Shown: positions 1-11,803, counted from the stretch's first letter. The stretch is DNA of 11,803 nt from Alphaproteobacteria bacterium (GCA_963667785.2 CAXXMU010000011.1:1-11803); one strand, 5' to 3'. A program made the numbers and translations. The notes: generated by a model from the letters alone, not told the origin.

Positions 1-455
1 AAACCAACACCAACGCGCTGAAGATTCTCGGCGAGGACCGCGTCGACATGATGCTGTGGGACGCGGGTATCCAGCTCTACGCCAACGTCTACTACGCCAC
101 CGACGAGATGCTGGCTGAGCATTCGGATGTGCTGACCCGCTTCCTCACCGGCTCTGCGCGCGGCTGGGGAGAGGCGCGCAAGAACCCGGAGGCGGGCGTC
201 GACCACCTCGTCGCCGAGTACCAGAACCTGGACCGCGCGAGCGAAATGGAAGCCGTGGGGCCGGTGCTCGGATTCTCGTTCAACGACGTGACGGCAGCGG
301 AGGGCTGGGCGGCCATGAACCCCGCCAACTGGCAGGCGCAGATCGACACTTACGCCGAGCTGGAGCAGTTCCAGGGCTCCACGCCCACGCTGGACGACGT
401 GATGACCTTGGATATCCTTGCTGCCACGGAGGCCGTGAGGAGAGAGGTTGGATGA
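1..455 (+). CDS. ABC transporter substrate-binding protein, NMT1/THI5-like (TauA/SsuA clan); 5'-truncated at the window edge
   Basis: The frame is open from nt 3 (TNTNALKILGEDRVD-MMLWDAGIQLYANVYYAT...), so ATG48 is internal. The C-terminal pattern (Y-x-N...FL...RGW..A.KNPE, GWAAM...WQ, DDVMT) is typical of NMT1/THI5-like binding proteins. The stop overlaps the ATPase start (ATGA 452-455). Confidence 0.8.
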   Translation, partial: TNTNALKILGEDRVDMMLWDAGIQLYANVYYATDEMLAEHSDVLTRFLTGSARGWGEARKNPEAGVDHLVAEYQNLDRASEMEAVGPVLGFSFNDVTAAEGWAAMNPANWQAQIDTYAELEQFQGSTPTLDDVMTLDILAATEAVRREVG

Positions 456-1267
456 CGCAAGCCGCCGCCGTGGCGTCGGGCGGCACTGAAGCCTCCCCCG
501 CCACGGCGATCTCGGTGAACGACCTGGTCGTCCGTTTCGAGACGGAGACCGGCAGCGTCACCGCCCTGGAGAGGGTGAGCTTCGGCGTGCCCGAGGGCGG
601 CTTCGTCACCATGCTGGGCCCGTCCGGCTGCGGCAAGTCCACGCTGCTGCGCGCCATCGCCGATCTGGTGCCGCTCTCAAGCGGCGACATCCGTGTCTTC
701 GGCCGCACGCCGGAGGAGGCGCGCCGCGCGCGCGACTTCGCCTTCGTCTTTCAGGATGCGACGCTGCTGCCCTGGCGAAGCGCGATCGACAACGTGCGCC
801 TGCCGCTTGAGGTGGGCCGGCGAGGCGGCGCCGTCGAGCAGCATGCGGAGCCGGAGGAGCTGCTGGCGCTGGTGGGCCTCGAAGGGCGCGAGGATGCGCT
901 CCCCCACGAGCTTTCCGGCGGGATGCGCCAGCGCGTCTCCATCGCCCGGGCGCTCGTCTGCCGCCCCCGCGTGCTGCTGATGGACGAGCCCTTCGGCGCG
1001 CTCGACGAGATCAAGCGCGACAGCCTCAACGAGGAGCTGCTGCGTATCTGGAAGAAGACCGGCACCACGATCATGTTCGTCACGCATTCCGTGCCGGAAG
1101 CCGCGTTCCTCGGCCAGAAATGCCTGGTGCTCTCGGCCCAGCCGGGGCGCGTCCGCGAATACCTGGACATCTCGTTCGATTCGCCCCGCGTCCTCGGCAT
1201 GCGCGACACGCTCGGGTTCGTGCAGGTCACGGCGCACCTGCGCGGCCTCCTGGATGTGCCGCGATGA
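452..1267 (+). CDS. ABC transporter ATP-binding protein, TauB/SsuB/NrtD family
   Basis: Walker A GPSGCGKST, Q-loop VFQ, LLPWRSA, signature LSGGMRQR, Walker B/D-loop LLMDEPFGALD, H-loop VTH. GAGG at 444-447 precedes the ATG. Confidence 0.95.
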   Translation: MTQAAAVASGGTEASPATAISVNDLVVRFETETGSVTALERVSFGVPEGGFVTMLGPSGCGKSTLLRAIADLVPLSSGDIRVFGRTPEEARRARDFAFVFQDATLLPWRSAIDNVRLPLEVGRRGGAVEQHAEPEELLALVGLEGREDALPHELSGGMRQRVSIARALVCRPRVLLMDEPFGALDEIKRDSLNEELLRIWKKTGTTIMFVTHSVPEAAFLGQKCLVLSAQPGRVREYLDISFDSPRVLGMRDTLGFVQVTAHLRGLLDVPR

Positions 1268-2103
1268 CGTCCACGGAGGTCGGTGCCAAGGCCGCCGAGC
1301 CGCAGGCCGCTGCGGCCGTGCGCGAGCGGTCCGGGCCAAGCAGGATGCGGCGGCGCTTCCGCCGCGCACCCGCCGTCATCGCCGCCGTCGGCATGGTGGT
1401 CGTCTGGCACCTCATCGTCACCGGGTTCGAGATCCCGACCTACATCGCGCCGAGCCCGTGGCAGGTCCTGCAGGTGTTTGCGGACCAGGGCCACATCCTC
1501 TGGGTCAATTTCCTGCCGACTTTGCTGGAGGCGGTATGCGGCTTCGTGCTGGGCAACACCATCGCGGTGCTTCTCGCGGTCTGGTTCGTGCACAGCGGGC
1601 TGGCGGAGCGCGCGTTCTACCCCATCGCGGTGTTCATCAACACGATCCCGATCATCGCCATCGCCCCCATCCTGGTGCTGATGCTGGGCAACGGCTACGA
1701 GCCCAAGATCGTCATCGCGGCTCTGATCTGCTTCTTCCCGACCCTCGTCAACATGGTGCGGGGGCTGAAGGCGGTGAGCCCGCAGATGCTGGAGCTGATG
1801 CGCGTGCTGTCGGCCAACGACCGCGAGGTCCTGTTCAAGATCAGGCTGCAGAGCTCGCTGCCCTTTCTCTTCGCGGCATTGAAGATCGCGTCGACCACCT
1901 GCGTCATCGGCGCCATCGTGGGCGAGTGGATCGGCTCCAACTACGGTCTCGGCTCCCTCATCATCGAGGCCACCTACAACTTCCGCGCCCCGCTGCTCTA
2001 CGCCACGGTCATCCTGGGCGCCGGCCTAGCGGTCGCGTTCTTCGTGACCACGTCCCTCGTCGAACGCCAGGTCCTGAAGTGGAAGCCGGGCGCGGTCTAC
2101 TGA
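1264..2103 (+). CDS. ABC transporter permease, TauC/SsuC family (279 aa)
   Basis: Start reassigned to ATG1264, which overlaps the ATPase stop (ATGA). Several hydrophobic segments plus family motifs (PSPWQV, PIIAIAP, FFP, EAA-like LMRVLSANDREVLFKIRL...LP, GAIVGEW...GLG). Confidence 0.92.
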   Translation: MTSTEVGAKAAEPQAAAAVRERSGPSRMRRRFRRAPAVIAAVGMVVVWHLIVTGFEIPTYIAPSPWQVLQVFADQGHILWVNFLPTLLEAVCGFVLGNTIAVLLAVWFVHSGLAERAFYPIAVFINTIPIIAIAPILVLMLGNGYEPKIVIAALICFFPTLVNMVRGLKAVSPQMLELMRVLSANDREVLFKIRLQSSLPFLFAALKIASTTCVIGAIVGEWIGSNYGLGSLIIEATYNFRAPLLYATVILGAGLAVAFFVTTSLVERQVLKWKPGAVY

Positions 2104-2134
2104 TCCCGCCGCGCCCTCACCCGGAGGCAATCGC

Positions 2135-3496
2135 ATGTCATCGCCCGAAATCCTGATCCGCCCCCAAGCCGATGTGCCGGTGGTCGCCGAGGCCGACGTG
2201 GCGGTCGTGGGTGGCGGCCCCGCCGGCATCGCCGCGGCGGTCTCCGCCGCGCGCAACGGCGCGGACGCGCTGCTGGTGGAGCGCTATCCCTACCTCGGCG
2301 GGCTCGCGTCCGGCGGCATGGTGCTGGTGCTCGACGACATGCACAACGACACCGAGATCTCCGTGCGCGGGCTTGCGATGGAGATCATCGAGCGCATGCA
2401 CGCCAAGAGGCTCTGCGTATACCCGCCCGAGGCCGATCGCGACCCTGCCGTCCGGGCGACCCAGGAGATGTGGCGCAAGTGGCGCCGCTGGGGCCTCTTC
2501 GACTTCCACACCCAGTCGAAACCGCATCCCATCATCTTTGCCGCCGCCTTCGATCCGGACGGCTTCAAGCAGGCCTCGCTCGACATGGTGCGCGAGGCCG
2601 GCGTCCGCCTGCGCCTGCACAGCTGGTTCCAGTCCGCCATCGTCGACGACGGCTGCGCCGCCGGCGTCATCGTCGAGACCAAGGAGGGCACGCAGGCCAT
2701 CCGGGCGCGCGCCGTCATCGATGCCACGGGCGATCTCGATGTGGCGGCCAGCGCCGGCGCGGCTTACGAGGACGGCGCCTACATCGTCACCACGGTCTCG
2801 CGCATCGGCGGCGTGGATACCGAGGCGGCGGAGCGCTTCGAGAACGAGGAGCCCGAGCGCTTCGCGGCGCTCGACCGCCAGGCCAAGCGCCTGATCGGCG
2901 GCAGCTGGCAGCACTGGTGGCTCAAGACGCCGCTGCCCGGCATCGTCTGGTGCAACTGCCCGCACATGACCGGGTTCGACGGCATGAAGGTCGCCGATCT
3001 GACGGCGGCCGAGTTCGAGGGCCGCCGGCGCATGCAGGGGCTGCTCGAGTTCGCCCGCGAGAACCTACCCGGCTTCGAGCAGGCGTACTTCGTCGACTTC
3101 GCGCCGCAGACCGGCGTACGCCAGACCCGGCTGCTAAAGGGCGAATACGTGGTCACCAAGCGGGACGTGAGGGACCGCGTGCACTTCCACGACAGCGTCT
3201 GCCGCGGCCGCGACTACTACACCCCCTACCGCGCGCTGCTGCCTGTGGGCGTCGACCAGCTGCTGGTCGCGGGCCGGCACTACTCGGCGACTCCGCAGGC
3301 CCAGAAGATCAGCCGCGAGATCCCGCCCTGCATGGCCATGGGCGAGGCCGCCGGCATCGCCGCGGCCCATGCGCTCGACGGCGGCATCCTTGTGCGCGAC
3401 GTGGACGTGCGCGGCATCCAGAGGCAGATGCGCGCGCAAGGGGCCGATCCCGGTGACAGGCCGGCCGGCAACGCGCACGTGACGGAGGCCGCCTGA
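2135..3496 (+). CDS. FAD-dependent oxidoreductase (FAD_oxidored / PF12831-type)
   Basis: Rossmann motif VVGGGPAG, then ERYPYLGGLASGG, IDATGDLD, RQTRLLKGEY, TPYRALLP, LLVAGR and CMAMGEAAG. SD GGAGG at 2123-2127. Confidence 0.88.
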   Translation: MSSPEILIRPQADVPVVAEADVAVVGGGPAGIAAAVSAARNGADALLVERYPYLGGLASGGMVLVLDDMHNDTEISVRGLAMEIIERMHAKRLCVYPPEADRDPAVRATQEMWRKWRRWGLFDFHTQSKPHPIIFAAAFDPDGFKQASLDMVREAGVRLRLHSWFQSAIVDDGCAAGVIVETKEGTQAIRARAVIDATGDLDVAASAGAAYEDGAYIVTTVSRIGGVDTEAAERFENEEPERFAALDRQAKRLIGGSWQHWWLKTPLPGIVWCNCPHMTGFDGMKVADLTAAEFEGRRRMQGLLEFARENLPGFEQAYFVDFAPQTGVRQTRLLKGEYVVTKRDVRDRVHFHDSVCRGRDYYTPYRALLPVGVDQLLVAGRHYSATPQAQKISREIPPCMAMGEAAGIAAAHALDGGILVRDVDVRGIQRQMRAQGADPGDRPAGNAHVTEAA

Positions 3497-4680
3497 TGGC
3501 AGCGAATGCAGGTGCAGCCGGCGACGGCCCGCTGCCGCTGGATGGCGTGCGCGTCCTCGACTTCACGCAGGTGATGATGGGCCCGTGCTGTACCCAGATG
3601 CTGGGCGACTACGGCGCCGACGTGATCAAGATCGAGCGCGCCGGGCAGGGCGACATCTCGCGCTGGAGCGTCGGCGAAGACCCGGACGGCGGCAACAACC
3701 CGGTGTTCGCGAGCCTCAACCGCAACAAGCGCAGCATGACCCTCGACCTCAAGTCCGACGCCGACAAGGCGGCCGTGCTGCGGCTGGTGGAGACGGCAGA
3801 CGTGGTCGTGAACAACTTCCGCCCCGGCGTCATGGAGCGCATGGGCCTCGGCTACGACGGCCTGCGCCGCATCAACCGGCGCATCATCTACGCCGTCGGC
3901 ACCGGCTTCGGCCTCGACGGCCCCTACGTCCACAAGGGCGGCCAGGACGTGCTGGCCCAGGCCATGAGCGGCGCCATGCACCGCCGCGCGGACCCGGCGC
4001 TGCCGCTCTCCGTCTATCCCACCGCGCTCGCCGATTACGCCGCAGGCATGCACCTGGTGCAGGGGATCCTGCTCGCGCTGCTCCAGCGCGAGCGGACCGG
4101 CGAGGGGCAGCATGTGGCGGTCTCGCTCTACAGCTCCATGCTGGCGATGCAGATGCAGGAAGCGGCCATGTGGATGATGCGGGGCCGCGAGCTCAACTGG
4201 GCCGCCATGCCGCTCTCCGGCGTCTTCGAGACCACCGACGGCGCCATCGTCATGGTCGGCGCCTTCAAGGAGAACCCCTTGCGCGACATCTGCCGGGCGC
4301 TCGGCATCGACGACCTCTCCGCCGATGCCAGGTACGCCACCCTTGAGCAGCAGCAGGCCCACCGGCCCGTGCTTCAGGTGATCTTCCGCGAGAGCTTCGC
4401 CCGCAACACGACCGATCACTGGCTCGAGCGCCTCGGCGCGGTCGACATCCTGTGCGCGCCCGTGAAGTCGCTCCAGGCCGCCCTTGAGGATCCGCAGACT
4501 GCCTGCAACCGCCTGATCGTCGAGCTGGCGCCGACCGCCGGCGGGCCGGTGCGTCTCGTGGCCTCGCCCATCGACATGTCGGCTGCGCCCTTCGCGGTGC
4601 GCCGTGCGCCGCCCACCCTCGGCGAGCATACCGAAGAGGTGCTGGCAGAGGTGGCAGCCGAAGACGGGTGCGCAGCGTGA
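3496..4680 (+). CDS. Family III CoA-transferase (CaiB/BaiF/Frc)
   Basis: PLDGVRVLDF, GP...LGDYGADVIKIE, NRNKRS, NFRPG, AQAMSG, the candidate catalytic Asp in ALADYAAG (codon 4033-4035), and C-terminal PPTLGEHT. TGATG overlap with the upstream gene and SD GGAGG at 3484-3488. Confidence 0.95.
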   Translation: MAANAGAAGDGPLPLDGVRVLDFTQVMMGPCCTQMLGDYGADVIKIERAGQGDISRWSVGEDPDGGNNPVFASLNRNKRSMTLDLKSDADKAAVLRLVETADVVVNNFRPGVMERMGLGYDGLRRINRRIIYAVGTGFGLDGPYVHKGGQDVLAQAMSGAMHRRADPALPLSVYPTALADYAAGMHLVQGILLALLQRERTGEGQHVAVSLYSSMLAMQMQEAAMWMMRGRELNWAAMPLSGVFETTDGAIVMVGAFKENPLRDICRALGIDDLSADARYATLEQQQAHRPVLQVIFRESFARNTTDHWLERLGAVDILCAPVKSLQAALEDPQTACNRLIVELAPTAGGPVRLVASPIDMSAAPFAVRRAPPTLGEHTEEVLAEVAAEDGCAA

Positions 4681-5444
4681 GCGTGGACTTCAGCGTCACG
4701 GACGGCATCGCCCGGGTCACGCTGAACCGGCCGGAGCGGCTGAACGCCGTCGATTCCGCGACCGACGTGGCGCTCGGAAAGATCTGGGGGGAGATCGACC
4801 GGGATCAGAGCGTGCGCTGCGTCGTGCTCACCGGCGCGGGCCGCGCGTTCTGCGCGGGCGCGGACATGAAGGAGGAAGGCCCCGGCGGTCTCGCTTACTG
4901 GGCCGGCACCGGCGACAACGGCTTCGGCGGCATCGCGCTCGGCGGCCGTCTCTCCGTGCCCGTGGTCGCCAGAGTGAACGGGCTCGCGCTCGGCGGCGGC
5001 TTCGAGATGGTGCTGGGCTGCGATCTCGCGATCGCTGCCGAGGGCGCATCGTTCGGCCTGCCCGAGCCCCGCGTCGGCCGCCTGCCGCTCGACGGCATGG
5101 TGACCCTACCCCGCCGGATTCCGCGCGCGCTCGCCATGGGCATGCTGCTCACCGGCCGGCGCATCGGTGCGGTGGAGGCCCTGGGCCTCGGCCTCGTCAA
5201 CGAGATCGCGCCCGAGGGGGCTTTGGACGACGCGGTCGATGCCTGGGTCCGGGATATCGTCGCCTGCGCCCCGCTCAGCCTCAAGGCGATCAAGCGCTCC
5301 GTCCACGACACCGCGCACCTCACGGTCGCGGAGGCCCGCAACGCCCGCCTGCCGAGCCTCGTGGACGCGTTGCAGAGCCGGGATGCGGAGGAAGGCGTCG
5401 CGGCGTTCCGGGAGAAGCGCGCGCCGGCATGGTCGGGGCGGTGA
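4677..5444 (+). CDS. Enoyl-CoA hydratase / crotonase superfamily protein
   Basis: LNRPERLNA, oxyanion-hole motifs AFCAGAD and GGGFE, second glutamate in LPEPRVG, C-terminal EGVAAFREKRAP. Start GTG4677 chosen for its GTGA overlap with the CoA-transferase stop (the ORF track uses 4668). Confidence 0.93.
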   Translation: MSVDFSVTDGIARVTLNRPERLNAVDSATDVALGKIWGEIDRDQSVRCVVLTGAGRAFCAGADMKEEGPGGLAYWAGTGDNGFGGIALGGRLSVPVVARVNGLALGGGFEMVLGCDLAIAAEGASFGLPEPRVGRLPLDGMVTLPRRIPRALAMGMLLTGRRIGAVEALGLGLVNEIAPEGALDDAVDAWVRDIVACAPLSLKAIKRSVHDTAHLTVAEARNARLPSLVDALQSRDAEEGVAAFREKRAPAWSGR

Positions 5445-5773
5445 CCTACGTCATCGCCGAGACCTGCATCGACGTGAAGGACGGCGTCTGCACCGACGTC
5501 TGCCCCGTCGACTGCATCTACGAGGGCGGGCGGATGTATTACATCCAGCCCGACGAGTGCGTGAACTGCGCGCTCTGCGTCTCGGTTTGCCCGGTCGAGG
5601 CCATCTGGTACGAGGACGACCTGCCCGGGAAGTCCGCAGGCTTCGTTGCCATCAACGCCGAGTTCTTCGGCGCATCGGTCACCGGCTGGGGTCAGCCCGG
5701 CGGCCTGAGCCCGGAGTTCCGCACCGAGCGGGATCACCCCGCCGTCGCGGCGTGGAGGGCGGACGGAGGCTGA
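5441..5773 (+). CDS. 7Fe-type ([3Fe-4S]+[4Fe-4S]) ferredoxin, FdxA-like (110 aa)
   Basis: GTG5441 overlaps the hydratase stop (GTGA). The sequence MTYVIAETCIDVKDGVCTDVCPVDCIYEG...ECVNCALCVSVCPVEAI has C9-x7-C17-x3-C21-P, C25 and C40-x2-C43-x2-C46-x3-C50-P. It is hidden at the end of ORF 4604..5773 in the track. Confidence 0.93.
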   Translation: MTYVIAETCIDVKDGVCTDVCPVDCIYEGGRMYYIQPDECVNCALCVSVCPVEAIWYEDDLPGKSAGFVAINAEFFGASVTGWGQPGGLSPEFRTERDHPAVAAWRADGG

Positions 5774-5779
5774 GAGCGG

Positions 5780-6679
5780 ATGCATGCGGCGGTGCTGCGC
5801 TACTTCGAGGCGGTGGCGGAGGACGGATCGATCCGCCGCGCGTCGGAGCGTCTCCACATCTCGCCCTCCGCCGTCAACCGGCAGATCCTGAAGATCGAGG
5901 ACTACTTCGGCACGCCGTTGTTCGAACGGCGGCCCGATGGCATGCGGCTCACCGATGCCGGGCGGCTCGTGCTGCGCCACGCGCAGGCGACGCTGCACGA
6001 CTTCACCCGGCTTCGGGGCGAGATCGACCAGCTGCGCGGCGTGCTCAGCGGCGTCGTGACCATCGCCACCCTGGACAGCCTGACCGTTCACTTTCTGCCG
6101 GATGCGGCCGGGCGCTTCATCGCCGACCATCCGGCGGTGCAGATCCGGGTCGTGGCCTGCGATCCCATGGAGATCGTGCACTCCATCGGCCAGGGAAACG
6201 CCGATCTCGGGCTGACCTTCTCGCCGACACGGCAGCGCGGCATCACGGTTGTGCAGGACATTCCCTGCCCGATGCACGCCATCATGCGCCCGGACCACGC
6301 GCTGGCGACGCGCTCCGCGCTCACGCTGGAGGACTGCGGCACCAGCCGGCTCCTCTATCAGGACAGCTCGAGCTCGATGCAGGCCTTCTTCGGCCCCGAG
6401 ATGGACGCGTTCAAGCGCGCGCACAAGCCGGCCGTGATCTCCAACACGCTGGCTGCGCTGAAGCACCTCCTGCTGCAGGGCGCGGGCGTCGCGTTCTACA
6501 CGCGCATGGGGTTCACGGAAGAGCTGGCCAGCGGGCGGCTGGTCGCGGTGCCGCTCGCGGACGAGCGGCTGTCCTGCCTGCGGCTGAGCCTGATCGCGCC
6601 GTCGGACCGCCTGCCGACGCTGGCCGCGCAGGCCATGGCGGAGCATCTGCAGGAAGCGCTGGTCCGCTTCGCCGCCTGA
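5780..6679 (+). CDS. LysR-family transcriptional regulator
   Basis: N-terminal HTH LRYFEAVAEDGSIRRASERLHISPSAVNRQILKIEDYFGTPLFER...LTDAG, 299 aa, with a C-terminal effector domain (ADLGL, HALA, GAGVA). GGAGG at 5765-5769. Confidence 0.95.
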   Translation: MHAAVLRYFEAVAEDGSIRRASERLHISPSAVNRQILKIEDYFGTPLFERRPDGMRLTDAGRLVLRHAQATLHDFTRLRGEIDQLRGVLSGVVTIATLDSLTVHFLPDAAGRFIADHPAVQIRVVACDPMEIVHSIGQGNADLGLTFSPTRQRGITVVQDIPCPMHAIMRPDHALATRSALTLEDCGTSRLLYQDSSSSMQAFFGPEMDAFKRAHKPAVISNTLAALKHLLLQGAGVAFYTRMGFTEELASGRLVAVPLADERLSCLRLSLIAPSDRLPTLAAQAMAEHLQEALVRFAA

Positions 6680-6787
6680 CCCTTCCCTTGCCGGATCGGT
6701 CCACATTTGGTTCTGGGACCTATAGGCTTTCAAGAAACGTGACGCGCACGTCTGGTTTTCTCGTGAGGCGAGGGGCAAGCTGGCGCC
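6680..6787 (+). promoter_or_regulatory. Probable promoter region of the ung-like operon: candidate -10 TATAGG (6721-6726), candidate LexA box GTCC-N7-GTTC (6699-6713), purine-rich SD-like GAGG/GAGGGG (6765-6775)
   Basis: This is the longest intergenic gap in the window (108 bp) and is visibly AT-richer than the coding sequence. Motifs were read directly. No consensus -35 at 17-bp spacing. Confidence 0.45.
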
Positions 6788-7642
6788 ATGGCGATGCGAC
6801 TGGAAGCAGCATTGCGCGACACGCTGCGAGGCTGGCATGAGGATGTCGAGCCAGCCTGGGGCGACGTCGTCCGAAGCGTCGCGTTGGCCTACGGGGACGT
6901 GGATTCAACACTCGAGATCGAGCCCTGGGAGCCGATCTTCCCGGCCCGGCGCGGCGCCGTCTTCCCCGGCGCGCCGGCGGGCGCGCACATGCTTCGCGCG
7001 TTCGACGGGATCGCGCCGGCGGACGTGCGCTGCGTGATCCTGGGCCAGGACCCCTATCCCTGCCCGGCCTTCGCCACCGGCCGGGCCTTCGAGGCCGGCA
7101 ACGTCGCGCACTGGCGGGAGCTCGACAAGATGTTCTCGCCCAGCGTCCGCGCCTTCATCCAGGCGATCGTCGCCGCGCGCACCGGTGAAGCCCGCCATGC
7201 CCGGCGCTTCGCCGACTGGCCGGCGACGCTCTCCGCCATCGAGTCCGGCGCGATCGATCTGGAGGCGCCCGAAGCACTGGTTGACCGCTGGGTCGGGTCC
7301 GGCGTGCTGCTGCTCAACACTTCGCTCACGCTCTCGCGCTTCCAACGCGACGTCGATCCCCACCAGCGGCGGGGGCACCTGCCTCTGTGGCGTCCCCTGA
7401 TGGTCCGGGTGATCGAGCATCTGGCCGGGGCGGGAACGCCCGTGGTCTTTGTCGGTTTCGGCGATGCGGCGGCGGAGACCCTGGCTGCGGCGAGACTGGG
7501 CGGATCGGGTGCGGCCACCGCAGCGCGCGTCATCCTGCGGCCGCACCCGGCCGAGGCCGACGCGTTCCTCGCAATGGAGAATCCGTTCACGCTCTGCAAC
7601 CGGCGCCTGCAGGCGATAGGCGCCGCAGCGGTGGACTGGTAG
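6788..7642 (+). CDS. Divergent family-1 uracil-DNA glycosylase (UNG)-like protein
   Basis: Collinear with E. coli Ung motifs: VILGQDPY (GQDPYP at 7043-7060), A-x-G-x-AF, SPS (Ung PPS), W...GVLLLNT-x-LT, H...W, VVF-x-x-FG, PHP, and N-x-F...N..L...G...VDW at the C-terminus. The start could be 6788 or 6794. No gene symbol given because key DNA-binding residues differ. Confidence 0.85.
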   Translation: MAMRLEAALRDTLRGWHEDVEPAWGDVVRSVALAYGDVDSTLEIEPWEPIFPARRGAVFPGAPAGAHMLRAFDGIAPADVRCVILGQDPYPCPAFATGRAFEAGNVAHWRELDKMFSPSVRAFIQAIVAARTGEARHARRFADWPATLSAIESGAIDLEAPEALVDRWVGSGVLLLNTSLTLSRFQRDVDPHQRRGHLPLWRPLMVRVIEHLAGAGTPVVFVGFGDAAAETLAAARLGGSGAATAARVILRPHPAEADAFLAMENPFTLCNRRLQAIGAAAVDW

Positions 7643-7645
7643 GCG

Positions 7646-9304
7646 ATGGCCCGCGCGCGCTCCTTCGACTACGTCATCGTCGGCGCGGGCTCGGCGGGAT
7701 GCGTGCTCGCCAACAGGCTGTCCGCCGATCCCGATCGCTCGGTGCTGCTGATCGAGGCCGGCGGGAAGGACCGCAACCCCCTGCTTCGACTGCCCATGCT
7801 GATGGGCAGGCTCTTCCACTCCGGCATCTACAACTGGCGCTACCACACCGAGCCGGTGCCGGGCCTGGGCGGCCGCTCGCTCTACTGGCCGCGCGGCAAG
7901 GTGCTCGGCGGCTCGTCCACCATCAACGGCATGGTCTACGTGCGCGGCAACCGCCACGACTACGACCGCTGGGCGCAGATGGGCCTGGCCGGCTGGTCCT
8001 ACGACGAGGTGCTGCCGGCCTTCCACCGCTCGGAAGGGCATATCGAGCGGGACGATGCCTATCACGGGACCGGTGGCGCGCTCACGGTTTGCCGCGCGCG
8101 CGGGACAAGTCCGCTGTTCGACGCTTTCCTCGAGGCGGGCGCCGAGGCCGGCTGGCCAGTCAACGACGACTTCAACGGGGCGGAGCAGGAGGGCTTCGGG
8201 CGTTACGACTTCACCATCAGGCGGGGCAGACGCTGCTCCACGTCCGTCGCCTTCCTGCGCCCGGTCCGGCGCCGGCGGAACCTGACGGTCCTCACCGACT
8301 GCCTCGTGCGCCGTGTCGTGGTCGAGGGCGGCCGCGCGACCGGCGTCGAGGTGGCGGAGGGAGCCGGCGCGCGCACCATCCATGCGGAGCGCGAGGTCAT
8401 CCTCTGCGGCGGCACGGTCAACACGCCGCAGCTTCTCATGCTCTCGGGCATCGGTCCGGGCGACGCGCTGAAGCGACACGGCATCGCCGTGGTCCACGAG
8501 CTCCCCGGTGTCGGCCGCAACCTCCAGGACCACGTCGACTGCGTCATCGCCTACGCCTGCACCGAGCCGATCACCCTCTACCGCGAGCTTCGGGCCGACC
8601 GCATGGTCCGCGCCGTGGCGGCGGGGTTGCTGTTCGGTCGCGGCATCGCCACCACCTTCCCTTACGAGGCCGGGGCCTTCCTCAAGACCCGGCCGGACCT
8701 GCTGGCGCCGGACATCCAGGTGCACTTCATGCCGGCGCTGGAGAGCACGGCGAACCTCCACATCCCCAATCCGCTCAGGAAGACCCCGCTGGAGGAGGCC
8801 CACGGCTTCACTCTGCGTGTCGGCCCCATCGTGCCCGAGAGCCGGGGGTGGATCGGGCTCCGCTCCGCCGACCCCGCAGCGCCGGCGCTGATCCAGCCCA
8901 ACTACCTGGAGGACGAGGCCGACTGCCGCACAACCGTCGCCGGCATCCGCATGGTGCGCGACGTGATCGCGCAGCCCGCCTTCGCCGCCTATCGCGGTGC
9001 TGAGCTTGCGCCGGGCGATGCGCTGCAGAGCGACGCCGAGCTCACGGCCTGGCTCCGCGCCAACGCGATGACGACCTTCCACCCCGTCGGCACCTGCCGC
9101 ATGGGCACCGACCCGATGGCGGTGGTGGACGCGCGGCTCGCGGTCCACGGCATTGACGGGCTCAGGGTCGCCGATGCCTCCGTCATGCCCGTCATCACGA
9201 GCGGCAACACCAACGCGCCGGCCATCATGATCGGCGAGAAGGCCGCCCAGTTCGTCGCCGGCAGCGACGAAGCGCACGTATCATCGGAAGGAGTCCAGCA
9301 ATGA
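7646..9304 (+). CDS. GMC-family flavin oxidoreductase (choline dehydrogenase-like, substrate unknown)
   Basis: DYVIVGAGSAG, RGKVLGGSSTINGMVYVRG, PQLLMLSGIG, GVGRNLQDH, catalytic His in TTFHPVGTCRMG (codon 9080-9082), LRVADASVMP and GNTNAP (His/Asn pair). Confidence 0.93.
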   Translation: MARARSFDYVIVGAGSAGCVLANRLSADPDRSVLLIEAGGKDRNPLLRLPMLMGRLFHSGIYNWRYHTEPVPGLGGRSLYWPRGKVLGGSSTINGMVYVRGNRHDYDRWAQMGLAGWSYDEVLPAFHRSEGHIERDDAYHGTGGALTVCRARGTSPLFDAFLEAGAEAGWPVNDDFNGAEQEGFGRYDFTIRRGRRCSTSVAFLRPVRRRRNLTVLTDCLVRRVVVEGGRATGVEVAEGAGARTIHAEREVILCGGTVNTPQLLMLSGIGPGDALKRHGIAVVHELPGVGRNLQDHVDCVIAYACTEPITLYRELRADRMVRAVAAGLLFGRGIATTFPYEAGAFLKTRPDLLAPDIQVHFMPALESTANLHIPNPLRKTPLEEAHGFTLRVGPIVPESRGWIGLRSADPAAPALIQPNYLEDEADCRTTVAGIRMVRDVIAQPAFAAYRGAELAPGDALQSDAELTAWLRANAMTTFHPVGTCRMGTDPMAVVDARLAVHGIDGLRVADASVMPVITSGNTNAPAIMIGEKAAQFVAGSDEAHVSSEGVQQ

Positions 9305-9627
9305 TCGTCGAGCACCGGACCTACACGTTCCGCCCCGGCACGGTGGACGGCTGGCTGAAGACGTACCAGACGGAAGGCCTCCCCATCCAGAAGCGCCATC
9401 TCGGCCGCTTCGTCGGCCTCTATGTCTCCGAGATCGGTCGGCTGAACCGGATCGTCCTGATCTGGGCCTACCAGAGCCTGGCGGATCGCGAGACGCGCCG
9501 GGCCGCGATGACGGCGGACCCCGACTGGCAGGCCTTCATCCAGTCGGTCTGGGCCCTCGATGCCATCCAGGAGCAGGACGTGATGGTGATGAACCCCGCG
9601 CCCTGCTCGCCACCCATCGGCGATTGA
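9301..9627 (+). CDS. NIPSNAP family protein
   Basis: MIVEHRTYTFRPG...G-x-Y-x-SEIG-x-LN....WAY-x-SL-x-DR...R......DPDW, single domain of 108 aa. ATGA overlap with the GMC stop and SD AAGGAG at 9288-9293. Confidence 0.9.
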   Translation: MIVEHRTYTFRPGTVDGWLKTYQTEGLPIQKRHLGRFVGLYVSEIGRLNRIVLIWAYQSLADRETRRAAMTADPDWQAFIQSVWALDAIQEQDVMVMNPAPCSPPIGD

Positions 9628-9655
9628 CCGGCCCGCTGGCGGGGTGGAGGTCGTG

Positions 9656-10294
9656 GTGAGCGCCGATCGTGCCGCGCTGCTGGCGCTCCGCGCGGGCCCC
9701 GACGCGATGGCTACGGCCCTCGATTGCGTGGCGCGGGAGGACGCCGCGGTCCTGCCGCTGCTGGCACCCGCCGACTGCCGGCCCTTCATCGAGGCGGGCT
9801 CGGATCTCTCCTTCCGCAGCGCGAGGCCCGTCATCGGCGAGGGAGAGCGCGCCGTCTACCAGGATTTCGACATCTGCCTCTCGATCCCGGAGCTGCACCC
9901 GCTCTGGCGGCTCACGCAAGCCGTCGAACGGCTGGTCGCGGACGCGCTCGCCGCGATGGACGCGCCGCCGCTGGAGGCGCTGCCCCTCAACGACCTCGTG
10001 CTGCAGCGCTACCCGCCCGGTGCGCGCGGCATAACGCCGCACCGCGACCATGTGCGTTACGTCGGCCTGGTGGCGATCGTCCAGCTCAGCGGCGACGGGC
10101 ACTTCGGTCTCTGCACCGATCGCGGCGGCGCGGATTCCCGCGTACTCGAAGCCGGACCCGGCGACGGCATCCTGATGCGGGCACCCGGCTTTGGCGGGGC
10201 CCGGCACCGGCCGTTCCACTTCCTCGACGGCATCACGGTGGAGCGCTACAGCCTCGGCATGCGCTGCGACCGCACGAAAGACGCCGACACCTGA
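9656..10294 (+). CDS. AlkB-like 2-oxoglutarate/Fe(II) dioxygenase
   Basis: LQRYPPG (AlkB INRYAPG), HRD at 10040-10048, GD-x-x-x-M, distal His at 10217-10219, and RYSLGMR at 10244-10264 (AlkB RYNLTFR, R-x5-R). Start is uncertain: GTG9656 follows GGAGG 9646-9650; GTG9644 and ATG9707 are alternatives. Confidence 0.8.
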   Translation: MSADRAALLALRAGPDAMATALDCVAREDAAVLPLLAPADCRPFIEAGSDLSFRSARPVIGEGERAVYQDFDICLSIPELHPLWRLTQAVERLVADALAAMDAPPLEALPLNDLVLQRYPPGARGITPHRDHVRYVGLVAIVQLSGDGHFGLCTDRGGADSRVLEAGPGDGILMRAPGFGGARHRPFHFLDGITVERYSLGMRCDRTKDADT

Positions 10295-10326
10295 GGCTCC
10301 CGGCCGGGCAAGGCGGATCGCGCCCG

Positions 10327-10335
10327 TGCTATAGT
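10327..10335 (+). promoter_or_regulatory. Putative sigma70 extended -10 element (TG-C-TATAGT) of uvrD
   Basis: TGCTATAGT lies in the 67-bp gap, 26 nt upstream of ATG10362, and is an AT-rich island in very GC-rich DNA. No clear -35 or SD. Confidence 0.55.
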
Positions 10336-10361
10336 GGGCGAATCCTCCCGCACCGTGGCCC

Positions 10362-11803
10362 ATGAACGAGCTTTTCGATTCCGCGCCCGGCCTGTCCGCC
10401 GGTCCCGATGCCCGCCCGCCGGCGCCGATGCCCCCGTCGGCCTATCTCGACGGCCTGAATCCGGAGCAGCGCCAGGCGGCGGAAGCGCTCGACGGCCCGC
10501 TGCTCGTGCTGGCGGGCGCCGGCACCGGCAAGACCCGCGTGCTCACCACGCGGCTTGCCCACATTCTCGCCACCGGCCGCGCCCGGCCCGGTCAGGTGCT
10601 CGCTGTCACCTTCACCAACAAGGCGGCGCGCGAGATGATCGGACGCGTGGAGCGCCTGATCGGCCGCTCCGCCGCCGGCCTCTGGCTCGGCACCTTCCAC
10701 GCCATCGCGGCCCGCATCCTGCGCCGCCACGCCGAGCTCGCCGGGCTGAAGCCGGACTTCACCATTCTTGACACCGACGATCAGGTCCGCCTGCTGAAGC
10801 AGATCATCCAGGCGGCCGACATCGACGAGAAGCGCTGGCCGGCGCGGACCCTCTCCGTCATCATCCAGCGTTGGAAGGACCGGGGACTCACAGTCGACAG
10901 GGTGGCGGGCGCGGACGGCGCCGACTACGCCAACGGGCGCGCACCCGCCCTCTACGCGGCCTATCAGGAGCGGCTGCGCACCGTGAACGCCGCCGATTTC
11001 GGCGACCTGCTGCTGCACAACCTGACCCTCTTCACCAGGCATGGCGACGTGCTCGCCGACTACCAGCAGCGCTTCCGCTACCTGCTGGTGGACGAGTACC
11101 AGGACACCAACGTCGCCCAGTACCTCTGGCTCAGGCTGCTGGCGCAGACCCATCACAGCATCTGCTGCGTCGGCGACGACGACCAGTCCATCTACGGCTG
11201 GCGCGGCGCCGAGGTCGGCAACATCCTCCGCTTCGAGCAGGATTTTCCCGGCGCCCAGGTGGTCAGGCTGGAGCGCAACTACCGCTCCACCGGGCACATC
11301 CTCGCCGCCGCCTCGGGCCTGATCGCCCACAATGCCGGCCGCCTCGGCAAGACGCTCTGGACCGAGGGCGATGATGGCGAGAAGGTCCGCATCGGCGAGA
11401 GCTGGGACGGCGACGAGGAAGCCCGCGCCGTGGGCGACGCCATCGAGGCGCTGCAGCAGGGCGGCGAGAGCCTCGACAGCATCGCCATCCTCGTCCGCGC
11501 CGGCTTCCAGACCCGCGCGTTCGAAGAATGCTTCCTCACCATCGGCCTGCCCTACCGCGTGATCGGCGGCTTGCGCTTCTACGAGCGCCAGGAGGTCCGG
11601 GACGCCGTGGCCTACATCCGCGTGATGGTGCGCCCGGACGACGATCTCGCCTTCGAGCGCATCGTGAACCTGCCGAAGCGCAGCCTGGGAGAGGCTTCGC
11701 TGCGCCCCGTGCACCAGCTTGCGCGCGCAGACGGTATCTCCCTCTACCGCGCGGCGGAGCGGCTGATCGAGACCGACGAGCTCAAGCCCCGCGCCCGCAC
11801 CGC
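10362..11803 (+). CDS. uvrD: UvrD/PcrA SF1A DNA helicase (DNA helicase II); 3'-truncated at the window edge
   Basis: Translated by hand because the ORF has no stop in the window: MNELFDSAPG...YLDGLNPEQRQA, Walker A AGAGTGKT (10512-10535), TFTNKAAREM, GTFH, DFGDLL, LVDEYQDTN, VGDDDQSIYGWRGA, LERNYRS, RFYERQEVRD. Confidence 0.95.
   Translation, partial: MNELFDSAPGLSAGPDARPPAPMPPSAYLDGLNPEQRQAAEALDGPLLVLAGAGTGKTRVLTTRLAHILATGRARPGQVLAVTFTNKAAREMIGRVERLIGRSAAGLWLGTFHAIAARILRRHAELAGLKPDFTILDTDDQVRLLKQIIQAADIDEKRWPARTLSVIIQRWKDRGLTVDRVAGADGADYANGRAPALYAAYQERLRTVNAADFGDLLLHNLTLFTRHGDVLADYQQRFRYLLVDEYQDTNVAQYLWLRLLAQTHHSICCVGDDDQSIYGWRGAEVGNILRFEQDFPGAQVVRLERNYRSTGHILAAASGLIAHNAGRLGKTLWTEGDDGEKVRIGESWDGDEEARAVGDAIEALQQGGESLDSIAILVRAGFQTRAFEECFLTIGLPYRVIGGLRFYERQEVRDAVAYIRVMVRPDDDLAFERIVNLPKRSLGEASLRPVHQLARADGISLYRAAERLIETDELKPRART

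Follow-up and report, generated by a model that had tools for sequence, protein, structure and literature searches.

A UDG-like, GMC oxidoreductase and NIPSNAP gene trio as a probable RutR-controlled pyrimidine utilisation module in Alphaproteobacteria

Overview of the trio

The subject of this study is a run of four genes on the + strand of an 11,803-nucleotide contig from an alphaproteobacterium (GCA_963667785.2, CAXXMU010000011.1), the whole of which was analysed and is referred to as the window. The first three genes encode a protein resembling the uracil-DNA glycosylases (UDG-like), a GMC-family flavin adenine dinucleotide (FAD) oxidoreductase and a NIPSNAP-domain protein. The fourth, open reading frame 4 (ORF4), encodes a protein with the fold of the 2-oxoglutarate/Fe(II) (2OG/Fe(II)) oxygenases. 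The run consists of two unrelated units, the UDG-like/GMC/NIPSNAP module and ORF4 with the uvrD helicase gene downstream of it. It is probable that the trio is a pyrimidine or nucleoside uptake and utilisation module under the control of a RutR-type repressor, with ORF4 belonging to uvrD. The genes of the trio are as follows.

6788..7642, + strand: UDG-like protein of 284 amino acids, a predicted derivative of family-1 Ung
7646..9304, + strand: GMC-family FAD oxidoreductase of 552 amino acids, of the “choline dehydrogenase” subfamily
9301..9627, + strand: NIPSNAP-domain protein of 108 amino acids, its start overlapping the GMC stop by 4 nucleotides (nt)

The UDG-like and GMC genes are separated by 3 nt and the GMC and NIPSNAP genes by −4 nt. 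The gap between NIPSNAP and ORF4 is 16 nt from the longest ORF and 28 nt from a GTG at position 9656. This GTG is preceded by GGAGG and agrees with a 212-amino acid database protein (P0124). An earlier, sequence-only reading of this DNA had described four co-oriented genes with gaps of 3, −4 and about 28 nt, of which the first was ung-like and the next two encoded GMC and NIPSNAP proteins. The ORFs and their spacing (28 nt from the GTG at 9656) were confirmed, as were the three identities. It had also placed the run between two promoter-like regions; a sigma-70 promoter scan of positions 6500-10500 returned 0 sites.

Conservation of the locus

Loci carrying the UDG-like gene were compared in two sets, 36 from genomes and 45 of 52 from metagenomes, seven with only a fragment of the UDG-like gene being left out. 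Loci are denoted by L-numbers and genomes by G-numbers, with G000 being the window's own assembly and the window being the whole of its contig C11. A GMC gene, counted when within 250 nt after the UDG-like gene, is present in 63 of the 69 assessable loci (30/34 genome and 33/35 metagenome) and lacking in L005, L013, L015, L029, L080 and L085. A NIPSNAP gene follows in 28/32 genome and 23/26 metagenome loci. Upstream, a divergent TetR gene is found in 28/35 and 29/32 loci of the respective sets. Downstream, a Bmp-family binding protein, a double ATP-binding cassette (ABC) ATPase and two permeases are encoded in 25/30 and 21/23. The canonical order comprises eight genes: a divergent RutR-type TetR gene followed, after paired operators, by the genes for the UDG-like, GMC and NIPSNAP proteins, a Bmp/PnrA-type binding protein, the double ABC ATPase and two permeases.

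The gaps between the UDG-like and GMC genes measure 3-10 nt across orders. Carriers are labelled as Rhodospirillales, Hyphomicrobiales, Paracoccaceae/Rhodobacteraceae, Dongiaceae and Gammaproteobacteria, and include marine, sponge-associated and soil Alphaproteobacteria. One cultured carrier is Bauldia litoralis ATCC 35022 (L020). The UDG-like gene is rare in an even sample of the class (2/300 genomes), and a profile search of 1.84 billion representatives returned 125 clusters at E≤1e-30. No description of the UDG-like/GMC/NIPSNAP gene set was found in the literature searched, whose coverage left most subscription journals outside. Within it, UDG paired with NIPSNAP and nucleoside oxidase paired with GMC returned irrelevant items or a bare mention in a reference list.

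The downstream transporter has the composition of the Bmp/PnrA nucleoside ABC importers, namely a Pfam Bmp protein, a double ABC ATPase and two BPD_transp_2 permeases. The best relative of the Bmp protein in the PDB reaches only E 1e-20, and its relatives are basic membrane proteins and TmpC/PnrA-like lipoproteins. One of them, 6pi5, is an atrazine-binding protein with a triazine ligand, and a free base is a possible ligand for the Bmp protein here.

On a short metagenome contig (L120:1363-4988), TetR fragments are flanked by a divergent pair of UDG-like copies (30-51% identity), and a distant GMC gene (42% identity) is also present.

The RutR-type repressor and its operator

The TetR protein of the canonical loci carries the Pfam TetR_C_3 domain, a YcdC-like C-terminal domain, and matches the structures of Escherichia coli RutR over its full length (E 4e-39). 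Its score against the NCBIfam RutR model is 169 bits, below the equivalog cut-off of 368. In the intergenic region between the TetR and UDG-like genes, two TTGAC-N6-GTCAA palindromes lie approximately 34 nt apart in 10/10 aligned loci. The outer half-sites, TTGAC and GTCAA, are presumably those of the E. coli RutR box.

The 250 nt upstream of the UDG-like gene were scanned for the core of this box with at most one mismatch, and random 250-nt windows from the same loci served as background. A pair of boxes was found in 60/81 loci as against 7/1495 background windows, and at least one box in 74/81 as against 149/1495. In the canonical copy on contig C1 of G000, one pair precedes the UDG-like gene and another precedes the Bmp gene. 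Judged by sequence, the canonical loci combine a RutR-like repressor with a palindromic predicted operator upstream of the genes that it would regulate.

With the E. coli rut regulon, these loci share a YcdC/RutR-type repressor, a palindromic operator and linkage to pyrimidine catabolic genes. They differ from it in that the repressor falls below the RutR equivalog cut-off and no rutA-G gene is present in the core locus. The enzymes are instead the UDG-like, GMC and NIPSNAP proteins, and a Bmp-type ABC importer takes the place of RutG.

The UDG-like protein

The UDG-like protein falls below the curated family cut-offs. It scores 19.9 bits against Pfam UDG (cut-off 24.3) and 55-71 bits against the NCBIfam ung models (cut-offs 143-237), including 70.6 against 162 for NF003592 and 66.8 against 185.75 for TIGR00628. 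Its matches are nevertheless to family-1 UNGs: all 42 phmmer matches in the PDB are UDGs and belong to this family only (best E 7e-13). The best Foldseek matches of its AlphaFold model, which has a predicted local distance difference test (pLDDT) score of 82.9, are also family-1 UNGs. They share the fold at E 7e-8 to 1e-4. The closest known system is accordingly family-1 Ung, to which the unconventional UNG of Nitratifractor salsuginis (PDB 5x3g) also belongs. The sequence thus points to descent from family-1 Ung.

Twelve members of the UDG-like family were aligned to E. coli Ung (NC_000913), whose numbering is used here. The residues of the Ung uracil pocket and catalysis (Q63, D64, Y66, F77, N123 and H187) are unchanged in 12/12. 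The water-activating loop GQDPY, with the catalytic Asp, is identical in 12/12. The uracil-recognition Asn (LLLN), the stacking Phe and the catalytic His are likewise identical in 12/12 and are invariant in 22/22 sequences. The C-terminal PF..N..L..G..P(I/V)DW and the His of the HP motif are also features kept from family-1 Ung.

The regions that hold DNA in Ung are altered. Substitutions H67→P, P86→W, S88→E and S189→A are found in 12/12 members, P190-L191 is deleted in 12/12, and position 192 is non-Ser in 12/12. Pro at position 67 is also seen in the aligned Ung of Mycobacterium tuberculosis. The position of S166 is occupied by Ser in 1/12 and by Asp or Glu in 8/12. The Pro-rich loop of family-1 Ung is replaced by W-R-E, the Ser of the Gly-Ser loop is mostly Asp or Glu, and HPSPLS is shortened to HPA by the loss of Pro-Leu. 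The N terminus is longer by about 25 residues, two insertions measure 32 and 7 residues, and the net charge is negative in 11/12 members. According to a published account, the DNA backbone is compressed by the Ser-Pro loops, its phosphates are held by the counterparts of H67/68, P86/87 and S189, and Leu191 plugs the gap left once the uracil has flipped out (PMC3711442). Since the uracil-pocket residues are kept and the DNA-contact loop residues are gone, the sequences suggest a family that retains the parts for binding and cleaving uracil and has lost those for gripping DNA. The gene also stands in a catabolic operon, unlike the repair setting of family-1 Ung. The genome carries three further UDG-superfamily genes that score above the Pfam cut-off.

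Several irregular forms were seen. P0244 joins the N-terminal 148 residues of a UDG-like protein to a MoCoBD_2 fragment, and P0248 and P0269 join UDG-like pieces to GMC pieces. All three were rejected as functional fusions and are read as truncations or assembly chimeras. The N-terminal extensions of P0287 and P0315 gave no Pfam domain. Elsewhere in G000 (C5:386017-387897, L043:1432-3312), an open frame of at least 627 amino acids contains a partial UDG domain (37.8 bits). It adjoins an M20 peptidase gene, and two C-N hydrolase genes and a methylmalonate-semialdehyde dehydrogenase (MMSDH) gene lie about 3 kb away.

The GMC oxidoreductase and the NIPSNAP protein

Both domains of the GMC protein exceed their Pfam cut-offs (GMC_oxred_N, PF00732, 204.7 bits; GMC_oxred_C, PF05199, 132.4 bits), and it passes NF002550, the PRK02106 subfamily, with 676.7 against a cut-off of 605. 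Its closest PDB match is an oxygen-dependent choline dehydrogenase (9lq0, E 3.5e-137), and pyridoxine 4-oxidase and hydroxymethylfurfural (HMF) oxidase are among its more distant relatives there (E 1e-68 to 1e-85). It is not a BetA equivalog, scoring 581 against the cut-off of 732.1 of TIGR01810 (betA). The family consensus contains a GxGxxG stretch, and H479 and N521 are invariant. The gene is one of about 10 GMC paralogs in the genome. It resembles choline dehydrogenase BetA and the 3-hydroxypropionate dehydrogenases HpdH, DddA and Gmor in having both GMC domains, and is itself a member of the PRK02106 subfamily. It differs in its score against the equivalog model, its fixed position beside the UDG-like gene and its translational coupling to NIPSNAP.

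The NIPSNAP protein scores 105 bits against Pfam PF07978 (cut-off 22.3) and covers 101/102 profile positions. An alignment of 17 sequences has 28 invariant columns. Its PDB relatives are all uncharacterised. A prediction of a complex between the GMC and NIPSNAP proteins, run without controls, scored 0.00, which speaks neither for nor against an interaction.

At L026:2950-4581 and L024:8840-10465, the GMC frames (tblastn coordinates) contain an in-frame stop, which may reflect a pseudogene, an error in sequencing or an artefact of the coordinates. A second NIPSNAP gene of G000 (32% identity; C2:22000-38000, L065) lies 1.5 kb from another GMC oxidoreductase gene (41% identity). An ion-channel gene on the opposite strand stands between the two, and phenol-hydroxylase-like and beta-oxidation genes follow downstream.

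Pyrimidine-catabolic neighbours

Certain variant loci place the trio beside genes of pyrimidine catabolism. In L097 and L103, a pyrimidine nucleoside phosphorylase gene stands in place of NIPSNAP, between GMC and Bmp. In L114, a pyrimidine nucleoside phosphorylase gene and a TonB-dependent receptor gene precede the trio, and genes for a luciferase-like monooxygenase and MMSDH follow it. Directly upstream of the trio in L033 are genes for a C-N hydrolase, a dihydropyrimidinase, an AptA aminotransferase and MMSDH, the last three scoring above their NCBIfam cut-offs. Given the variety of these neighbours, the trio has links both to pyrimidine nucleosides and to several distinct routes of base degradation, as would suit a step at free uracil or before it. 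Glyoxalase_8 genes occur in some Hyphomicrobiales-type loci (L016, L020 and L022), and the remaining flanking genes of the trio loci are variable.

The fourth gene and its uvrD partner

ORF4 and the gene that follows it are arranged as follows.

9656..10294 (longest ORF from 9644), + strand: ORF4, 2OG/Fe(II) oxygenase-fold protein, the partner of uvrD
10362..11801, + strand: N-terminal 480 amino acids of a UvrD/PcrA-type helicase (Pfam UvrD-helicase and UvrD_C, NCBIfam pcrA/uvrD), running off the contig end

ORF4 is absent from 80/81 other trio loci. No relative of ORF4, LysR or UvrD was found at the 36 UDG-like genome loci (0/36), and ORF4 was present at 1/45 of the metagenome loci (L074, a close relative of the window). 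It is single-copy in 20/20 genomes of the same genus and lies directly 5′ of uvrD in 15/19 non-window loci of that genus (16/20 with the window). Of the others, 2/19 have sdhC as a neighbour and 2/19 have neither. Among these 19 ORF4 loci, GMC and NIPSNAP genes lie upstream in G320 only. The stable partner of ORF4 is uvrD, because this adjacency is kept in same-genus loci and ORF4 is absent from trio loci; ORF4 belongs with the downstream uvrD and not with the trio.

The sequence-only reading had treated the four genes as one unit and proposed a chain that included methyl hydroxylation by the fourth, AlkB-like protein. The recurrence of the UDG-like, GMC and NIPSNAP genes together in Alphaproteobacteria and some Gammaproteobacteria upholds the linkage for the trio. 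For ORF4, which is unlinked from the trio in nearly all other loci, the linkage fails, and the hydroxylation chain is not supported.

The assignment to AlkB stands only in part. The window protein gave no Pfam or NCBIfam match, with 0 Pfam hits at E up to 10, and 7/26 of its relatives match the AlkB-type PF13532 (best E 5e-7). H133, D135 and H192, forming an HxD...H iron triad, and R201 and R207 are invariant in 26 sequences of the family. The model (pLDDT 90.5) has a double-stranded beta-helix (jelly-roll) fold. Foldseek returned more than 500 hits at E≤0.001, with prolyl hydroxylases first (E 2e-9) and all of the matches listed being 2OG/Fe(II) prolyl hydroxylases. In the VIA structure search, prolyl hydroxylases (Z 16.8) came before ALKBH6 (Z 15.6) and E. 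coli AlkB (Z 13.5). An hhalign comparison of the ORF4 family with E. coli AlkB was not significant (probability 0.2%), and the R-Y-x-L-x-x-R end of ORF4 aligns to R204-R210 of E. coli AlkB. The protein has the fold, the HxD...H motif and the two Arg residues of the AlkB and prolyl-4-hydroxylase 2OG/Fe(II) oxygenases. It differs from AlkB in lacking a Pfam match and in ranking prolyl hydroxylases above AlkB homologs in both structure searches. The triad, a 2OG-binding Arg and the modelled fold argue for a 2OG/Fe(II) oxygenase, and the assignment between the AlkB and prolyl hydroxylase families is ambiguous.

The other ORF4 copy of the assembly (C5:136000-146000, L037) was observed between a divergent pair of genes for a xanthine/uracil permease and a PfkB kinase on one side and sdhCDA on the other, and not beside uvrD. 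The sdhC neighbourhood of this copy is repeated in G302 and G318.

Proposed function and alternatives

The synteny, the operator, the conserved and lost residues and the folds are established; the substrate, the order of reactions and the roles of GMC and NIPSNAP are what we infer from them. In the proposed scheme, the importer would bring in a soluble N1-substituted uracil compound, in the simplest case a nucleoside of the (deoxy)uridine type. The UDG-like enzyme would cleave this compound or otherwise turn it over, and the GMC flavoenzyme would next oxidise an alcohol of the sugar or side-chain part. The NIPSNAP protein may play a helper role, for instance that of a mutarotase or isomerase-like alpha+beta barrel. 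RhaM is an alpha+beta-barrel mutarotase and provides a precedent for such a helper. The released uracil would relieve the RutR-type repressor, acting as the inducer, and would enter whichever base-catabolic route the host has.

The assignment of a soluble N1-substituted uracil compound to the UDG-like enzyme, with sugar or side-chain oxidation by GMC and assistance by NIPSNAP, is advanced tentatively, as falling somewhat short of probable. Equally tentative is the wider proposal that a branch of the family-1 UDGs may have turned into a small-molecule enzyme. Together with GMC and NIPSNAP, it would form an undescribed RutR-controlled entry to pyrimidine catabolism, either by hydrolysis of a uracil N-glycoside or by hydration of uracil toward barbiturate. 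The suggestion of the sequence-only reading that a UNG-like fold, in concert with GMC and NIPSNAP, acts on a base or nucleoside that is not part of DNA gains support from the synteny, the RutR-type repressor and operator, the Bmp importer and the pyrimidine-catabolic neighbours.

To our knowledge, all known members of the uracil-DNA glycosylase superfamily act on nucleic acids. If the proposal is true, the UDG-like enzyme would be the first of them to act on something other than a nucleic acid, widening the chemistry of the fold, and a missing enzyme set would be added to bacterial pyrimidine and nucleoside utilisation. It would also provide the first biochemical context, and a testable role, for bacterial NIPSNAP proteins. 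The current annotations of these genes as “uracil-DNA glycosylase” and “choline dehydrogenase” are both probably misleading.

Several points weigh against this interpretation. The substrate is a guess, and sequence, fold and context are the source of all functional statements. The UDG-like protein still has the whole catalytic apparatus of a DNA glycosylase, and the loss of loop residues, read from an alignment of about 30% identity, is no proof that DNA binding is lost. The active-site loops 89-105 and 180-189 of the model have pLDDT values below 50. NIPSNAP is missing in 7/58 assessable loci (L011, L013, L015, L029, L077, L097 and L103), and the copy in the window lacks an importer and retains a single degenerate box. 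A plain uridine hydrolase would be partly redundant with the pyrimidine nucleoside phosphorylase encoded in the L097 and L103 operons. No conserved lactonase or other sugar-acid gene was found in the locus, which weakens a sugar-oxidation role for GMC. In addition, the loci compared belong to kin lineages and are not independent samples.

The intact catalytic apparatus may instead mean that the UDG-like protein is still a uracil-DNA glycosylase, co-regulated with pyrimidine catabolism so as to protect DNA when uracil or dUTP is high, with GMC and NIPSNAP carrying out an unrelated catabolic step. This explanation is unlikely. The invariant catalytic and uracil-pocket residues speak for it, as does the closeness of the fold and sequence to family-1 UNGs. 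Against these stand the replacement of the Ser/Pro pinch (S88→E in 12/12), the deletion of Pro-Leu from the wedge loop in 12/12, the acidity of the UDG-like proteins and the presence of three other UDG-superfamily genes in the genome. The short spacing to GMC, 3-10 nt across orders, suggests one operon with one task. As a candidate for the unrelated step, 3-hydroxypropionate or 3-hydroxyisobutyrate would be oxidised to the semialdehyde, a reaction of HpdH, DddA and Gmor, and an MMSDH gene adjoins the trio in L033 and L114. When MMSDH is present, the reductive and Rut routes need no 3-hydroxy-acid dehydrogenase, which counts against this candidate. GMC-type 3-hydroxypropionate dehydrogenases are themselves known (PMC6572756; PMC12632250).

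A second alternative, a molybdenum-free oxidative route for uracil, appears quite unlikely. Here the UDG-like protein would be a uracil hydratase acting at C6, and GMC would convert 6-hydroxy-5,6-dihydrouracil to barbiturate. Ring opening would then fall to a barbiturase, and NIPSNAP would assist as a tautomerase or in handling the ring. The classical uracil dehydrogenase is a molybdo-flavoprotein and not a pair of UDG and GMC proteins. In favour of the route, G000 has a barbiturase ortholog (PF09663, 458 bits) whose match to barbiturase 5hwe (E 4e-147) is far stronger than those to cyanuric acid hydrolases (1.8e-84 or weaker). At its locus (C6:886535-890605, L126), it adjoins a cytosine deaminase gene on the same strand, with a pentapeptide-repeat protein encoded on the other side. 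No uracil-oxidising enzyme is encoded beside it at L126, which suggests an oxidative pyrimidine route with a non-adjacent uracil-oxidising enzyme. A free-base substrate would also suit the RutR-type repressor and those Bmp relatives that bind bases or base-like rings, such as 6pi5, and the oxidation of CH-OH groups is familiar from the GMC family.

PF09663 is present in 13/35 genomes carrying the UDG-like gene as against 9/300 of the class sample. Points shared with the oxidative pyrimidine pathway (uracil dehydrogenase, barbiturase and ureidomalonase) are the barbiturase beside cytosine deaminase in the host and the enrichment of barbiturase among trio carriers. A difference is that barbiturase lies outside the trio locus, being found within it at none of the loci examined, and is absent from 22/35 carriers, including all of those labelled Paracoccaceae/Rhodobacteraceae. 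PF09663 is present in just one of the two UDG-like carriers of the class sample. The enrichment is partial and tracks phylogeny. Furthermore, we know of no precedent for a hydratase in the UDG fold.

The weakest alternative is the hydroxylation chain of the sequence-only reading or a variant of it, in which an oxygenase would hydroxylate a pyrimidine or nucleoside of the thymine or 5-hydroxymethyluracil type, GMC would oxidise the hydroxymethyl group, and the UDG-like protein would release or bind the base after conversion to uracil. It is highly improbable. In its favour, oxygenase genes accompany the trio in some loci. They comprise cytochrome P450 genes in some Hyphomicrobiales-type loci (L019, L020, L116 and near L011), a 2OG-FeII_Oxy/DIOX_N gene in L005, which lacks GMC and where it is divergent from the UDG-like gene, and ORF4, a neighbour of the trio in the window and in G320 and L074. 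Against it, the locus has no conserved oxygenase, and ORF4, found in 1/81 other loci, pairs with uvrD. Pyridoxine 4-oxidase and HMF oxidase are among the PDB relatives of GMC, but its nearest relatives there are of the choline dehydrogenase type (E 3.5e-137 versus 1e-68 to 1e-85). The Tyr that in Ung excludes 5-substituted uracils is invariant here (12/12).

The L005 locus (2244-4648) is also of note for its order, in which the UDG-like gene is followed directly by NIPSNAP. Upstream of it, the divergent DIOX_N/2OG-FeII_Oxy oxygenase gene is accompanied by a gene of the fatty-acid-hydroxylase family.

The window copy and its surroundings

The trio of the window is a second, stripped copy, located between a LysR block and the ORF4-uvrD pair and lacking both repressor and importer. 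The window has a G+C content of approximately 70%. Among the sequencing runs listed for it, at least 21 are of DNA or of unknown kind, sponge metagenomes among them, and none is of RNA. Its + strand carries, in order, genes for an NMT1-type binding protein, an ABC ATPase, a permease, an FAD oxidoreductase, a family III CoA-transferase, a ferredoxin and a LysR regulator, then the four genes and the UvrD-type helicase gene. The features upstream of the trio are as follows.

3-5773, + strand: transporter/oxidoreductase block (NMT1-type binding protein, ABC ATPase, permease, FAD_oxidored, family III CoA-transferase and ferredoxin)
5780..6679, + strand: LysR-family regulator (Pfam HTH_1 and LysR_substrate), the final gene of the upstream block and outside the module
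6737-6751: terminator-like hairpin, overlapped by the RutR-type box at 6740-6753
6740..6753, + strand: single degenerate RutR-type box, TGAC-N6-GTCt, with 1 mismatch to the TGAC-N6-GTCA core

No second box was found at 30-38 nt from 6740-6753, and no TetR gene was found in the window. L074 carries the same single degenerate box.

Contig C11 belongs to a 14-contig assembly with an estimated contamination of 6.6%. Each of its genes is matched by a second copy, 74-92% identical, on the other contigs of the assembly (four separate places, on C2, C1, C5 and C6), and the copy of the trio, on C1, stands in the canonical TetR and Bmp context. As same-genus genomes have one ORF4 copy, C11 is probably derived from a co-binned close relative. 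The UDG-like protein of the window type is 88% identical to the canonical copy of another species (L001/G318) and 74% identical to the canonical copy of its own assembly.

A chimeric assembly was also considered for C11 and is ruled out by the recurrence of its gene order in G320, on a contig of at least 593 kb, and in L074, on a contig of 56.9 kb. In G320, the ferredoxin, LysR, trio, ORF4 and uvrD genes are arranged as in the window with 92-96% nt identity, and a canonical second copy of the trio is also present.

No LysR relative was found at the 36 genome loci of the trio (0/36). The LysR gene is syntenic with a copy at C2:614221-615117 of G000, the synteny extending upstream over the block of transporter, FAD oxidoreductase, CoA-transferase and ferredoxin genes. 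This block itself (3-5773) is conserved, with 86% nt identity to the copy at C2:608665-614091, where the LysR gene is again next in order.

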